Assembly: GCA_965207935.1 (NCBI GenBank)
Contig: CBDBNM010000002.1
Location: 77,692 to 141,691 of the forward strand
DNA length: 64,000 nucleotides
Direction of reading: 5' to 3'
Source of the DNA: Dehalococcoidia bacterium
GTDB lineage: Bacteria; Chloroflexota; Dehalococcoidia; Lucifugimonadales; JAGWBF01
Every line of letters starts with the position of its first letter. The first letter of the stretch is position 1. Both the position numbers and the translations under genes were made by a program. Below the pieces are notes generated by a model, which had not been told where the DNA came from, searched no databases, and worked only from the letters and a program-made list of their open reading frames with translations. This document shows, in pieces, positions 54,530 through 60,315 of the stretch.

Positions 54530-55438
54530 ATGGGTGTGGACTATTTGGACGCTGTCATTCAAGGGTACTGTGAAGAAGTTCTTCAGGATGTCCCAGACGA
54601 CACAGTCGATTTAATCATTACCTCTCCTCCCTATGCAGACCAACGCAAGAGCACCTACGGTGGCATCCACCCGAATCAATACGTCGAGTGGTTCATGCCC
54701 AAGGCTGACCAGTTCTATCGAGTTTTGAAACCCACCGGGACCTTTGTGCTCAACATCAAAGAAAGGGTAGTCAACGGTGAGCGCCACACATACGTGATGG
54801 AGTTGGTACTCGAGATGCGAAGGAGGGGCTGGCTCTGGACCGAGGAGTTCATGTGGCACAAGAAGAACTCCTACCCTGGTAAGTGGCCCAATCGTTTCCG
54901 AGATAACTGGGAACGCTTACTCCAGTTCAACAAGCAACGAAAGTTCCAGATGAACCAGGAAGCCGTAATGGTTCCGGTTGGAGACTGGTCAAAAACCAGG
55001 CTTGCCAATCTCAGTGAAACCGACTGTACGAGGGACGAATCTCGAGTCGGAAGTGGGTTCGGAAAGAACGTGTCCCATTGGGTAGGCCGCGATATGGTTT
55101 ATCCCAATAACGTGATTCACATCGCTACCGAGTCTTCCAATAAGCAACACAGTGCCGTATTTCCGGTTGGATTGCCGAGGTGGTTCATTAAGCTATTCAC
55201 TATGCCCGGCGATACGGTGCTTGACCCTTTCGTGGGTTCAGGCAGTACGCTACTCGCCGCAATCGAGCAGGGGAGGCACTACATTGGCATAGATGTGAAC
55301 GCAGACTATGTTCAACTCTGCAATGAGCGCATAAGAGATGCACAAATCCAGCTGCCCGGCGTCTTAGAACGGAAGGCCCGATACGCTACAACAACTACTT
55401 CCGAAGAGGTTGATGACGATGGAACCTCTAGACCTTAA
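54530..55438 (+). CDS. DNA methyltransferase, beta-class N4-cytosine/N6-adenine (motif IV before motif I)
   Basis: DLIITSPPYADQRK (SPPY) is N-terminal and VLDPFVGSGSTLLAA is C-terminal. The gene is visibly more AT-rich than its neighbours. Confidence 0.85.
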   Translation: MGVDYLDAVIQGYCEEVLQDVPDDTVDLIITSPPYADQRKSTYGGIHPNQYVEWFMPKADQFYRVLKPTGTFVLNIKERVVNGERHTYVMELVLEMRRRGWLWTEEFMWHKKNSYPGKWPNRFRDNWERLLQFNKQRKFQMNQEAVMVPVGDWSKTRLANLSETDCTRDESRVGSGFGKNVSHWVGRDMVYPNNVIHIATESSNKQHSAVFPVGLPRWFIKLFTMPGDTVLDPFVGSGSTLLAAIEQGRHYIGIDVNADYVQLCNERIRDAQIQLPGVLERKARYATTTTSEEVDDDGTSRP

Positions 55439-56177
55439 GATAGTTGAAGCATGGGTTAACGAGAACATCGTTAAGTTCCACAATAGGAAGCTGAGGTCAA
55501 TTGAAAGCCTAAGGCTATTCAAACTATTGCAGAAGAACCCTTACCTGTTTAAGGCCAAGAATATCGCAAGAGCTGGCGACCTAGTTGACGGTTTCCTTGA
55601 CGCCTTTCTATCGTCGTCCGAAGAAAAGCTGTTCGGAGATTTCTTGGAGGGCCTCGCCATATTCGTTGCCGAGCGAACTTCCAACGGCCACAAGTCGACC
55701 GCTCCCGGAGTCGATCTGGAATTCTTCAACAACAATGTCCACCATGTCGTGTCGGTAAAGTCAGGAACCAATTGGGGCAACAGCTCCCAGCATAGCAAAT
55801 TGGCCCAGGACTTAAGCACCGCCGTCATTAGAGTTAAGCAATCCAACCAGGCTGTAAAAGTAGAGTCGGTTCTCGGAATCTGTTACGGCAAAACCAAGAC
55901 TGCCTATCACAAATCAGGATATCTGAAGGTCGTTGGGCAGAACTTCTGGCACCTCATCAGCGAGAACAAAGACTTATACATCGACATTATTGAACCCATA
56001 GGATACGAGGCCCAGAAACACAATGATGAGTTCGCCAAGAAGAAGGCGGATGTAGCCAATCTGCTAACTAGGGAATTCACCAACGTGTTCTGTGACAAGA
56101 GCGGGGCGATTGATTGGCCAAAACTAGTGAAATCAAACAGTGGCAATTACGATACCGACAAGTTCTGGCAGAAGTAA
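55410..56177 (+). CDS. putative type II restriction endonuclease (PD-(D/E)xK)
   Basis: It overlaps the methyltransferase 3' end by 29 nt. GVDLEF...VVSVKSGTNWGNSSQ gives D-x-E...S-x-K. AT-rich. The family assignment is not certain. Confidence 0.5.
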   Translation: MMTMEPLDLKIVEAWVNENIVKFHNRKLRSIESLRLFKLLQKNPYLFKAKNIARAGDLVDGFLDAFLSSSEEKLFGDFLEGLAIFVAERTSNGHKSTAPGVDLEFFNNNVHHVVSVKSGTNWGNSSQHSKLAQDLSTAVIRVKQSNQAVKVESVLGICYGKTKTAYHKSGYLKVVGQNFWHLISENKDLYIDIIEPIGYEAQKHNDEFAKKKADVANLLTREFTNVFCDKSGAIDWPKLVKSNSGNYDTDKFWQK

Positions 56178-56198: not shown

Positions 56199-57251
56199 AT
56201 GACCTATGAGACGGGGGCGCTGATGTCCGGGCGGGTGGATGCCGACGGCATCGAAGATGCCATGGAGATGTGCTACACCAAGGGCTGGACCGACGGCCTG
56301 CCCGTAGTGCCTCCCACCGAGGAGAAGGTCGCGCGCTTCCTGGAGATGGCCGACCGGCGGGCCTCGGACGTCATCGGCGTCGAGCCTGTCCGCGGGAGGG
56401 TCATCACCGCCGAGAAGGTGGCCATCAATGCCGTGATGGCTGGCTGCCTGCCCGATTATATGCCTGTGGTCATGGCAGCAGTGGAGTGCATGGTGCAGCC
56501 CCAGTACAACCTTCACGGCAGCTCGGCCAGCACCGGAGGCTCCGCTCCCCTGATCGTGGTCAATGGCCCGGTGCGCCACCGCCTTGGATTCGCCAGCAGC
56601 CACAACATCTTCGGCCCCGGACCTGACCGCAGGGCCAACGCCACCGTGGGCCGGGCTGTGCGCCTCCTCCTCATCAACGTGCTGGAGAACCACCCCGGCG
56701 TGCTGGACCGCTCCACCCTGGGGCACCCGGGCAAGTACACCTACTGCATCGCCGAGGATGAGGAGAACAGCCCCTGGGAGCCCCTGCACGTGGAGCGGGG
56801 CTTCGCCCCCGACGCCAGCACCGTAACCCTGTTCACATCCCTGGGGCCGACCCAGCTTGAGTCCCGGCCCGCAGGCACCGCCGAGGCGATGCTGACAGGG
56901 GCCATCGACAGCATGATGGGCTTCGGGCATGGACACAATGAGCTGCTGATGATGGTGTCCCAGGAGCACGGAGGCTTCTTCAGAGCGGCCGGCTGGGACA
57001 AGGCCCAGGTGCGTGAGTTCGTGCACCAGCGAGCAAGACGCACGGCCACCGACTGGGCCGGTGTCTATAAGGGCGAGGTGCCCCCGGCAGGCTCGGAGGA
57101 TGTTATGGTGCCCGTGCTGCTGCGCCCCGAGTCCCTGGTGCTCCTGGCGGGAGGCGGGCCGGGCGGGCCCTGGTCATGCCTGGTACCCCGGTGGTCCAAG
57201 GGGGTCGGCTCCTACTCAGTAAGCCAGGAAATCGATATGCGGAACCTGTAG
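56199..57251 (+). CDS. conserved hypothetical protein upstream of the UGSC selenoprotein
   Basis: 350 aa with protein-like composition (MCYTKGWTDGLPVVPPTEEKV..., NLHGSSASTGGSAPLIVVNGP). No family was recognised. Confidence 0.5.
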   Translation: MTYETGALMSGRVDADGIEDAMEMCYTKGWTDGLPVVPPTEEKVARFLEMADRRASDVIGVEPVRGRVITAEKVAINAVMAGCLPDYMPVVMAAVECMVQPQYNLHGSSASTGGSAPLIVVNGPVRHRLGFASSHNIFGPGPDRRANATVGRAVRLLLINVLENHPGVLDRSTLGHPGKYTYCIAEDEENSPWEPLHVERGFAPDASTVTLFTSLGPTQLESRPAGTAEAMLTGAIDSMMGFGHGHNELLMMVSQEHGGFFRAAGWDKAQVREFVHQRARRTATDWAGVYKGEVPPAGSEDVMVPVLLRPESLVLLAGGGPGGPWSCLVPRWSKGVGSYSVSQEIDMRNL

Positions 57252-57316
57252 CAAATAACCCATCCCGGGGGTGTCTCCGGTGGTATAATGACGCCAACTT
57301 GATAGGAGAGTGCCGC

Positions 57317-57859
57317 ATGGTCACCGAAGCAACGGAGTTAACGTTCCTGGACCCAACAGTGGAAGCCATGCCCGACCGCACCAACATGGCTCCCCGCCCC
57401 GCCAACCTGGACGGCGCCATGGTCGGCCTCCTGGCCAATGGCAAGCGCAACGCCGATAAGCTGCTGGAGGCGGTGTACACCCTGCTGGATGAGCGCTACG
57501 AGCTGAAGGGCGCCGTCCGGGTTAACAAGGGGGATGCCTCCCGACCCGCCCCAGATCCGGTGGTGGAAGAGCTTCTCCGGAAGTGCGACCTGGTGATTAC
57601 CGCGACAGGTGATTGAGGGTCCTGCAGCTCGTGCAGTGTGCACGACGCAATCACAGTTGAGAAGGCTGGCAAGCCGGCGGCGGCCATATGCACCGAGCCC
57701 TTCGTCCCCACGGGGCGTTCCATCGCCAAGATACGTGGAATCGACGGCTATCCCTTCGCCGTAGTGACCCATCCGGTGGGAAGCGTGGAGGATGCGGTGG
57801 TGATGGAGCGGGCGCACCAAGCCCTGCCACGGGTGCTGGAAATACTGCTGGCTAAGTAG
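57317..57859 (+). CDS. UGSC-family selenoprotein (in-frame UGA at 57614-57616 read as selenocysteine)
   Basis: ORFs 57176..57616 and 57638..57859 are in the same frame, separated only by TGA. The joined sequence reads ...LVITATGD-U-GSCSSCSVHDAITVEKAGKPAAAICTEPF..., that is, a U-G-S-C motif. The start ATG at 57317 is preceded by GGAGAG. Confidence 0.65.
57629..57645 (+). promoter_or_regulatory. SECIS-like hairpin 13 nt downstream of the UGA
   Basis: UCGUGCA-GUG-UGCACGA forms a 7-bp stem with a G/U-containing triloop. Its position is comparable to bacterial SECIS elements. Confidence 0.4.
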
Positions 57860-58380
57860 GCCCTCACCCTAACCCCTCTCCCCGCTTCAACTGCTTCACT
57901 CTCGTTTTCGCGGGAGTCCACGCCCCAGAGCCTGTTCTGTCCGTTCCCCTTCGATTTCCCTCAGGGCGAACGGACGGAGGGGAATGACAAGAGGCTAACC
58001 GTCATTGCAGCGGATGCCGCAATCCAGGAAACTCCGAGACTGCTGCAGGCTGACCACTGCGGCGCCTCTTAGTTGATGGAGCCATCCCGAAAGCCGGCAA
58101 TGCTCCGTCCTAGATTGCGGCCTTCGCCGCAATGACGATTGTCCTTGTAATCACGAAATGCGCGGCCGCCTTGCGGTGCCCCTAGTTTGTGGGTTCGTCC
58201 TGAGGGAAATCGAAGGACGAACCGACAAGGAGGACGCCGGTCCAGGGCCTCAGGAAGGCGGGCCATGAAGGAACCTTGCCCGTCATTGCGGTCTACGCAC
58301 CGCCCGCCCTGGCGCACTCCCCGTTCGCCCTGGGGGAAATCGAAGGGGAACGGACAGCTATTGCTGCGCCGAGGAGGGAG
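57860..58380. repeat. cluster of REP-like intergenic repeats
   Basis: Three copies of the unit CGTTCGCCCTGAGGGAAATCGAAGGGGAACGG: one inverted near 57941-57975 and two direct near 58194-58226 and 58321-58354. Three copies of the CGTCATTGC(A/G)GCGG..GCCGCAATCC-type unit lie near 57999-58030, 58105-58135 and 58279-58300. Confidence 0.5.
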
Positions 58381-60315
58381 CTAGACGTCCAGTTCCTTGA
58401 CGCTGCGGGCGTGGGTGTTGATGAACTCCTTGCGAGGGGCCACCTCATCACCCATCAGGTCGGTGAAGGTGTCATCGGCTTCCATGGCATCGTCGATAGA
58501 CACCTGGAGCATGGTGCGGGTCTCGGGATTCATGGTGGTCTCCCAGAGCTGGTCCGGGTTCATCTCACCCAAACCCTTGTACCTCTGCACCATAACGCTG
58601 CGCTTGCCGTTCATGGAAGCGACCAGCTTCTCCTTGTGGGCATCGCTGAAGGCGTAGTTGGCGTTTTTGCCGGACTGGACACGATAGAGGGGCGGCTGGG
58701 CAATGAAGAGGTGCCCACTCTTGATCAACTCCTCCATGCGTCGGAAGAAGAAGGTGAGGAGCAGAGTGCGGATGTGGGAGCCGTCCACGTCGGCGTCGGT
58801 CATTATGATAACCTTGTGGTAACGCAGCTTCTCCAGGTTGAACTCCTCGCCCTCGCCCGCTCCAAGGGCGGCGATAAGGGCGCGGATCTCCTCGTGGCCC
58901 AGTATCTTGTCGGGCTGACGCAGCACCCGCTCCACGTTCAGGATCTTGCCCTTCAGGGGCAAGATGGCCTGGAAACGCCGGTCCCGGCCCATCTTGGCTG
59001 AGCCGCCGGCGGACTCGCCCTCCACTACATATATCTCGGAAAGCTCGGGGTTGCGCTCGGAGCAGTCGGCCAGCTTTCCGGGCAGGGAGGAGCCGTCCAG
59101 GGCGTTCTTGCGTATGACCAGCTCCCGGGCCTTCTTGGCCGCTTCCCTAGCCTTCTGGGCTGTGACGCAGTTGTCGATGATCCTCTTGCCCTCGGCGAGA
59201 TGCTCTTCCAGGTACTGGGACAGGGCCTCGCCGACCAGGGTCTCGACGATGCTCTTCACCTCGGCGTTCCCCAACTTGGTCTTGGTCTGTCCCTCGAACT
59301 GGGGATCGGTCAGCTTGAGGCTGATGACGGCGGTGAGGCCCTCGCGGACATCTTCTCCCGCCAGGTTCGCTTGGTCGTCCTTGAGGAGTTTCTGCTTGCG
59401 GGCATAGTCGTTGATCACCCGGGTGACGGCCGCGCGGAAGCCGGTAAGGTGGGTGCCCCCTTCCTCGGTGGGGATGCAGTTAGCGAAGGACAAGACGTGT
59501 TCACTGTAGCCGTCGTTGTACTGGATGGCCGCCTCGACGATGGTGTCCTCCACGGCTTTCTGCATGTAGAAGGGCTTGTCCTGGAGAACCTTGCGATGGC
59601 TGTTAATGCTTCGGACGAGGCTGGCGAGCCCGCCGTCGAAGTAGTAGCTGCGTTCTATGTCGCCGTCCCGCTCGTCCTCGTGCCAGTAGCTGGTGAAGTG
59701 CACTTCGAGGCCCTTGTTCAGGTAGGCGATCTCCTTGAAGTGGGCCGTCAGCACATCGAAGTCGTATTGGACATCGGTGAAAATCTCCGCGTCGGGCAGG
59801 AAGCGGATGGATGTGCCGGAAGATGCAGGGTTGTCGGAGGAATGTTTTTCCTTGCTCATGTTCCCCATGGATTCCCCGCGGCTGTACTTCTGGGTGGCCA
59901 CTACTCCATCCCGGCGCACTTCCACTTCCATTTGAGCAGACAGGGCGTTGACAACCGAAGCCCCCACACCATGAAGACCGCCTGACACCTTGTATGCCCC
60001 CCCTCCGAACTTGGCTCCGGCGTGGAGGGTCGTCATGACAGTTTCCAGGGCCGTGAGCCCGGTGGTGGGATGGATGTCTATGGGTATGCCGCGCCCATCA
60101 TCGAAGACGTGGACGATGCCGTCCTTCTGGATGGTTATGTCAACACCGGAACAGTGCCCGGCCATGGCTTCATCAACGCTGTTGTCCACGATCTCGTAGA
60201 TCAGGTGATGAAGGCCCCTCTGGTCGGTGCTTCCGATGTACATGCCAGGCCTTCGGCGGACGGCCTCCAAGCCTTGAAGGACCTGGATGTCTTTGGCAGT
60301 GTACTTTACCGTCAT
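58381..60315 (-). CDS. gyrB: DNA gyrase subunit B
   Basis: 644 aa with LEAVRRRPGMYIGS, HHLIYEIVDNSVDEA, GGLHGVGASVVNALS, the EGESAGGSAK TOPRIM motif and IMTDADVDGSHI. Confidence 0.95.
   Translation of the reverse strand: MTVKYTAKDIQVLQGLEAVRRRPGMYIGSTDQRGLHHLIYEIVDNSVDEAMAGHCSGVDITIQKDGIVHVFDDGRGIPIDIHPTTGLTALETVMTTLHAGAKFGGGAYKVSGGLHGVGASVVNALSAQMEVEVRRDGVVATQKYSRGESMGNMSKEKHSSDNPASSGTSIRFLPDAEIFTDVQYDFDVLTAHFKEIAYLNKGLEVHFTSYWHEDERDGDIERSYYFDGGLASLVRSINSHRKVLQDKPFYMQKAVEDTIVEAAIQYNDGYSEHVLSFANCIPTEEGGTHLTGFRAAVTRVINDYARKQKLLKDDQANLAGEDVREGLTAVISLKLTDPQFEGQTKTKLGNAEVKSIVETLVGEALSQYLEEHLAEGKRIIDNCVTAQKAREAAKKARELVIRKNALDGSSLPGKLADCSERNPELSEIYVVEGESAGGSAKMGRDRRFQAILPLKGKILNVERVLRQPDKILGHEEIRALIAALGAGEGEEFNLEKLRYHKVIIMTDADVDGSHIRTLLLTFFFRRMEELIKSGHLFIAQPPLYRVQSGKNANYAFSDAHKEKLVASMNGKRSVMVQRYKGLGEMNPDQLWETTMNPETRTMLQVSIDDAMEADDTFTDLMGDEVAPRKEFINTHARSVKELDV

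Follow-up and report, generated by a model that had tools for sequence, protein, structure and literature searches.

The 'UGSC-containing protein' was named in 2007 as a selenoprotein without an assigned function (PMC1976440); Hyphomonas neptunium, a cultivable organism that carries it, is named in the same paper. One year later, Zhang and Gladyshev counted 255 Sec forms versus 21 Cys forms of it in the GOS data, published its fusion to a conserved 'Unknown_1' domain and proposed a thioredoxin-like (Trx-like) fold (PMC2398784). Although UGSC is among the most abundant selenoproteins of aquatic metagenomes, its function has been lacking for almost twenty years, and reviews of 2022 and 2026 still carry it as uncharacterised. 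Here we analysed a UGSC gene in a 64,000-nucleotide stretch of DNA (the window) from a Dehalococcoidia genome. Family and fusion have been known in print since 2007-2008, and the member described here is an ordinary, catalogued one. It shares with the family the U-G-S-C motif, a SECIS directly downstream and the pairing or fusion with one conserved domain, and does not differ from it in kind; as in the GOS data, most of its relatives are Sec forms.

The SECIS of E. coli fdhF is the reference for bacteria, a short hairpin directly 3' of the UGA with G23 and U24 in the apical loop. For the attack of selenocysteine on a substrate that is held by a larger subunit, glycine reductase and D-proline reductase are the established analogues. 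We compared the locus with both.

The reading frame and its UGA codon

Two tracked open reading frames, 57176..57616 and 57638..57859, belong to one frame, and a single TGA is its sole interruption between the ATG and the TAG (Table 1). The preliminary description had proposed that they form one gene, split at this TGA and preceded by a good Shine-Dalgarno sequence. Our sequence check agrees with it for every coordinate and quoted peptide, and the Shine-Dalgarno sequence is present. Read through, the peptide is ...CDLVITATGD-U-GSCSSCSVHDAITVEKAGKPAAAICTEPF..., with ...ITATGD-U-GSCSSCSVHD... around the Sec position.

Table 1. Coordinates of features at the UGSC locus (positions in the window)
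Feature	Position	Strand	Remarks
Type II restriction-modification pair	54530-56177		directly upstream of partner gene
T-box leader RF00230	53067-53301	-	107 bits; ahead of a 597-aa minus-strand ORF
Partner gene (P0086)	56199..57251	+	350 aa; ends 65 nt before the UGSC ATG
Shine-Dalgarno AGGAG	57304-57308	+	8-nt spacer to ATG; read from sequence
Predicted UGSC selenoprotein gene	57317-57859	+	180 codons, Sec at codon 100, stop TAG 57857-57859
Start codon ATG	57317-57319	+	read from sequence
Antisense ORF (rejected)	57338-57820	-	160 aa; overlaps UGSC gene
UGA, predicted Sec codon (U100)	57614-57616	+	first residue of the U-G-S-C motif
C103 codon	57623-57625	+	last residue of the U-G-S-C motif
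Putative SECIS hairpin UCGUGCA-GUG-UGCACGA	57629-57645	+	7 bp; starts 13 nt after the UGA
Hairpin core, 5 bp	57631-57635 with 57639-57643	+	from comparative pairing
Hairpin loop G23-U24-G25	57636-57638	+	counted from the U of UGA
644-aa ORF	58381-60315	-	beyond the repeat-rich spacer

The read-through protein matched the Pfam profile PF24696 (UGSC) with 186.9 bits (E = 4e-55; cut-off 25 bits), residues 10-178 being aligned with profile positions 2-171 of 172, and the NCBIfam profile NF041046 ('UGSC family (seleno)protein') with 143.3 bits versus a curated cut-off of 125. Both scores lie above the curated cut-offs and confirm the family, which had at first been proposed from the U-G-S-C motif. 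Since the PF24696 match crosses the TGA, both tracked ORFs are one gene.

Among approximately 150 UGSC matches in 45 related genomes, nearly all have a TGA in the same column. U/C100 and C103 were invariant in 31 diverse homologues and in 34 more, and the Cys forms with CGSC (P0039, L038, L101 and L109) place their cysteine on the UGA column, where the preliminary description had expected Cys-containing orthologues to align. It had also named a finding that would speak against its reading, namely homologues that end at the UGA; instead, every homologue compared continues 3' of the UGA with conserved in-frame sequence. The proteins deposited in databases are almost all 99-residue N-terminal fragments that end at the UGA; of the remaining entries, P0003 has W at the Sec codon and P0039 is a genuine Cys form. 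One real gene thus stands in public databases as a 99-residue fragment, and the same truncation at TGA affects two genes outside the window, selD and one that is PrdB-like.

The machinery for selenocysteine, on which the proposal had been made to depend, was found in the metagenome-assembled genome (MAG) of the organism (2.5 Mb, 95% complete). The curated cut-offs were exceeded by selA (543 bits), by selB (316 bits) and by selD (377 bits), and a tRNA-Sec with the anticodon UCA is encoded at C1:111303-111399. It is the only tRNA of the genome with this anticodon, tRNA-Trp having CCA. Given that TGA terminates 249 of 861 long open frames and no other tRNA carries UCA, TGA is an ordinary stop in this organism, and a general reassignment of the codon is ruled out. 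Two further Sec genes were recognised in the genome, the PrdB-like gene (LVPA-U-PVC) and selD (G000:C2:644450-645373), which contains an in-frame TGA (CAG-U-AAK). Judged from this reading, the selenophosphate synthetase of the organism is itself a selenoprotein.

The hairpin downstream of the UGA

A SECIS-like hairpin had been proposed from the window sequence. Its coordinates agree with ours, and comparative data bear it out. For 44 homologues that encode very different peptides, we aligned the 81 nt that surround the Sec codon; this alignment (A1) is free of gaps and holds the hairpin in columns 31-37 and 41-47. At the hairpin, 88% of the cells were paired, versus 10-62% when the 3' arm was slid. 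In fixed register, compensatory changes occurred at three pairs (UA to CG in 6 sequences, CG to GC in 11 and AU to GC in 5), and none of 500 shuffles reached the covariation score. RNAalifold independently gave the same core hairpin. At 80 further loci from named genomes, all five core pairs were intact in 76 of the 77 TGA forms. Some of the stem is dictated by the C-S-V-H peptide, which is conserved; double changes at synonymous sites were seen in L077 (UGC...GUG to UGU...GUA) and L115 (UCG...CAC to UCA...CAU). The serine codon of the loop was always AGU, by which G23 and U24 are fixed.

Forms with cysteine look different. Of the two TGC forms, L101 (Nonomuraea) has one of the five core pairs left and no GU loop, and L109 retains the stem with the loop CGA, again without GU. 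In the Cys form L038 the stem is broken and the GU loop is absent.

Scanning the whole window with Rfam at gathering score returned no SECIS family, the only hits being a T-box and two tRNAs. We did not count this against the hairpin, because the bacterial SECIS models of Rfam are family-specific. When positions 57605-57680 were folded as a single sequence, the energy was unremarkable (z = 0.36) and the minimum-energy structure was a different one. The case for a SECIS therefore rests on the comparative data. Presumably, the hairpin corresponds to the fdhF element of E. coli, both being short, directly 3' of the UGA and with G23/U24 in the apical loop; the upper stems, UGCA/UGCA in both, are much alike. 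The two would differ in the loop, GUG (3 nt) here versus GGUC (4 nt) in E. coli, and in that the hairpin here is without an evident bulged U17 and without an extended lower stem.

In the mechanism we propose, SelB together with Sec-tRNA(Sec) would bind this hairpin, in whose loop G23/U24 have the canonical spacing from the UGA, and codon 100 would be translated as selenocysteine. From the sequence comparisons, we regard it as almost certain that this is a true Sec gene and belongs to the UGSC family.

The partner gene, the predicted fold and the proposed chemistry

The protein encoded upstream, P0086, had been suggested as a functional partner, and this suggestion gained support from co-occurrence, adjacency, fusions and co-divergence. 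Of 61 genomes of the order, the same 45 contain both partner and UGSC, with similar copy numbers (1 to 8). At 74 of 80 loci, which were centred on UGSC and belong to the relatives nearest to the copy in the window, the partner adjoins UGSC on the same strand, in either gene order; contig ends explain two of the six loci without an adjacent partner. True fusions, with UGSC followed by the partner, were found at seven loci, and the Sec codon is the sole TGA in their frame. The distances within UGSC and within the partner were correlated (Mantel r = 0.67, 0 of 500 permutations as high), a value that is inflated by shared species history, and for 86 of 110 pairs the closest relative of the UGSC copy comes with a partner that ranks among the three closest. 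UGSC and its partner thus probably form a functional unit, as far as can be judged from gene sequences and their order.

In the seven fusions (L044, L045, L046, L047, L050, L055 and L056), UGSC is N-terminal in a single chain of about 550 residues or more, the form in L044 having 550. Their UGSC part belongs to a distinct subfamily with the motifs UGTCASWMVHD, UGSCTSWLVHD and UGGCTSWLAHD, and no conservation is recognisable over the last approximately 70 residues of the partner. An apparent fusion in the opposite order, partner followed by UGSC (L041), was rejected, as it consists of two genes with a TGA stop between them.

P0086 gave no match in Pfam (even at E ≤ 10), NCBIfam, PDB sequences (searched with the single sequence and with a profile) or PDB folds. 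Its relatives make up at least 8000 database clusters, none of which has a Pfam domain; that is, the partner represents a very large family without a Pfam model or a solved relative. It is probably identical with the domain that Zhang and Gladyshev (2008) called 'Unknown_1'. The AF2 model (pLDDT 87, pTM 0.88) had no significant PDB fold match, and we did not rely on the weak ones, to class I fumarase and to the 'Toblerone-fold' cyclic amide hydrolases (TM 0.19-0.28). Invariant residues of the partner include C83, R145, R152, R155, C183, E186 and E188. A loop (residues 167-178) ahead of C183 is predicted to be disordered and could, speculatively, be a processing site.

The AF2 model of UGSC itself (pLDDT 92.1) consists of beta-alpha repeats with a predicted parallel sheet. 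U100 and C103 are located at the start of helix 101-116, right after strand 92-96. PDB fold matches of the model were generic flavodoxin-like domains (TM 0.3-0.5), the best being the flavodiiron flavodoxin domain, RpiB, LarB/PurE and receiver domains, and no thioredoxin was among the best 50 matches listed. Searches of PDB sequences revealed no relative of UGSC. The predicted fold is flavodoxin-like and not that of thioredoxin, and the Trx-like suggestion of 2008 is therefore not supported.

A weak match of UGSC residues 85-156 to TIGR01917 (GrdB; 17.1 bits versus a cut-off of 602.2) led us to examine the GRDB-family genes of related genomes. PF07355 did not match UGSC, and the N-terminal part of GrdB is absent from it. 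Read through, GRDB-family genes of related genomes encode ...VLLVAT-U-GTGTRSG...EKAGIPT and ...FLAST-U-PVCNRS...EVAGIPT, and the counterpart in UGSC is ...VITATGD-U-GSCSSCS...EKAGKPA. GrdB/GrdF/GrdH and PrdB share with UGSC a hydrophobic strand, U-x-x-C, a helix, E-x-x-G-I-P-T and the next strand. When UGSC was compared with the Sec domain of GrdB/PrdB by hhalign, two independently built UGSC alignments gave 91.5% (E 8.8e-7) and 92.2% (E 6e-7), and in both cases the Sec positions coincided, as did the Cys positions. By these profile comparisons, UGSC is a remote homologue of the GrdB/PrdB Sec domain, a relationship of one domain and not of family membership.

The gene calls of GRDB-family (PF07355) genes in the genome studied here (G000:C2:1162876-1163163) and in related genomes (L143-L154) also end at TGA; read through, these give ...LVPA-U-PVCHQS... 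(PrdB-like) or ...LLVAT-U-GTGTRSG... (GrdB-like) and so add to the selenoprotein genes that are truncated in annotation. The PF07355 model ends just before the Sec.

The GrdB/PrdB reductases have a second, larger protein, and UGSC appears likewise to be paired with a larger partner. That this partner is the split-off N-terminal half of GrdB was rejected (hhalign 0.1%), and no part of GrdB is related to it. For a pyruvoyl proprotein of the GrdE/PrdA type, no match of the partner was obtained in Pfam (E ≤ 10), PDB sequences or PDB folds. The partner is unlike anything known, including GrdE/PrdA, and the argument for a GrdB-like chemistry therefore comes entirely from the small subunit.

The best explanation for the whole, which we hold to be likely, is that a Sec-decoded UGSC would contribute the redox or nucleophile subunit to an enzyme of two proteins, the partner being its larger part and the two sometimes forming one fused chain. 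From their position at the helix N-terminus after strand 92-96, U100 and C103 would be able to cycle between selenol/thiol and selenenylsulfide. The alignment of Sec on Sec and Cys on Cys with GrdB/PrdB would make reductive cleavage the most likely chemistry: Sec would attack a substrate that the partner holds, a selenenylsulfide would form when C103 resolves the adduct, and re-reduction would follow. We propose this GrdB/PrdB-like chemistry for UGSC and its partner only tentatively, by analogy; the domain homology nevertheless provides a concrete and testable chemical hypothesis.

This explanation has to be weighed against other readings. UGSC could be a thioredoxin-type thiol/selenol-disulfide oxidoreductase that is general and stands on its own, with the upstream gene as one substrate or as an unrelated neighbour. 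UxxC at the start of a helix is the classic arrangement for redox activity, a Trx-like fold was proposed in PMC2398784, and six of the 80 loci, two of them contig ends, have no adjacent partner. However, the flavodoxin-like prediction, with no thioredoxin among the best 50 PDB matches listed, does not suit this reading, and neither do the true fusions, the co-divergence of the pairs and the copy numbers of UGSC and partner, which rise together up to seven or eight pairs per genome. One private partner per paralogue would not be expected of a general oxidoreductase, and we consider this reading improbable. With private pairs multiplied within one genome, substrate-specific catabolic enzymes would seem more fitting than a general redox carrier. 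UGSC as a carrier or chaperone in selenium or metal handling, with Sec and Cys as ligands, is very improbable. In this subfamily U100, C103, C106 and H109-D110 do cluster together as potential ligands, but only U/C100, C103 and D110 are invariant or nearly so, whereas C106 and H109 lack conservation in the wider family; moreover, the homology points to the catalytic GrdB/PrdB domains, and no transporter or metallochaperone gene is among the conserved neighbours.

If the UGA were a real stop, there would be either two small independent ORFs or one gene that a nonsense mutation has broken, in line with public gene calls that end at the UGA and with database entries that are mostly 99-aa fragments. 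To this we give practically no credence, as the TGA column recurs in almost all of the matches from the 45 genomes, the downstream part is conserved in frame and contains a SECIS with covariation, the Sec machinery is complete and Cys forms align at the UGA codon.

Extending the two-protein enzyme further, UGSC and its partner might represent a new class of selenium-dependent reductases, composed of a minimal GrdB/PrdB-type Sec domain and a catalytic subunit of a fold new to the PDB, with the former attacking a substrate bound by the latter. In Dehalococcoidia, where a genome has up to seven or eight private pairs, each pair would then serve another substrate in the breakdown of organic matter. 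So wide a reading is doubtful for now.

Genomic surroundings and a homologue with UAG

The UGSC-partner pair stands alone between a restriction-modification cassette and a repeat-rich spacer. The cassette, an N6/N4 DNA methylase (PF01555, 151 bits) and an EcoO109I-type endonuclease (PF14511, 228 bits), is unrelated to the UGSC module. No third conserved gene was detected near the pair, clusters other than the antisense ORF described next being present at no more than 16 of 81 loci each; minor neighbours, named by eye, were gamma-glutamyltranspeptidase-like, SDR, peptide ABC permeases, amidohydrolase and CoA-transferase-like. The second-largest neighbour cluster is the antisense ORF over the split UGSC gene (Table 1), an equivalent of which exists at 47 of 81 loci. 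We rejected it as a gene, since it recurs only because it shadows the conserved, TGA-split UGSC gene. A sigma-70 promoter scan found no site, and a terminator scan found one terminator-like site (58041-58064), which is not above chance expectation.

One UGSC homologue, from Modestobacter sp. NPDC049651 (NZ_JBFAOG010000001.1), has TAG instead of TGA at the Sec position (L130:6292-6294). The TAG is followed by an intact SECIS-type hairpin, CGGCCA-GUG-UGGCCG, with all five core pairs, and the best tRNA-Sec match of this organism (RF01852, 64.6 bits, L138:1501-1596) has the anticodon CUA. From its sequence, this looks like a case of UAG-decoded selenocysteine. A natural tRNA-Sec that reads UAG was reportedly described by Mukai et al. 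in 2016 under the title 'Facile recoding of selenocysteine in nature'.
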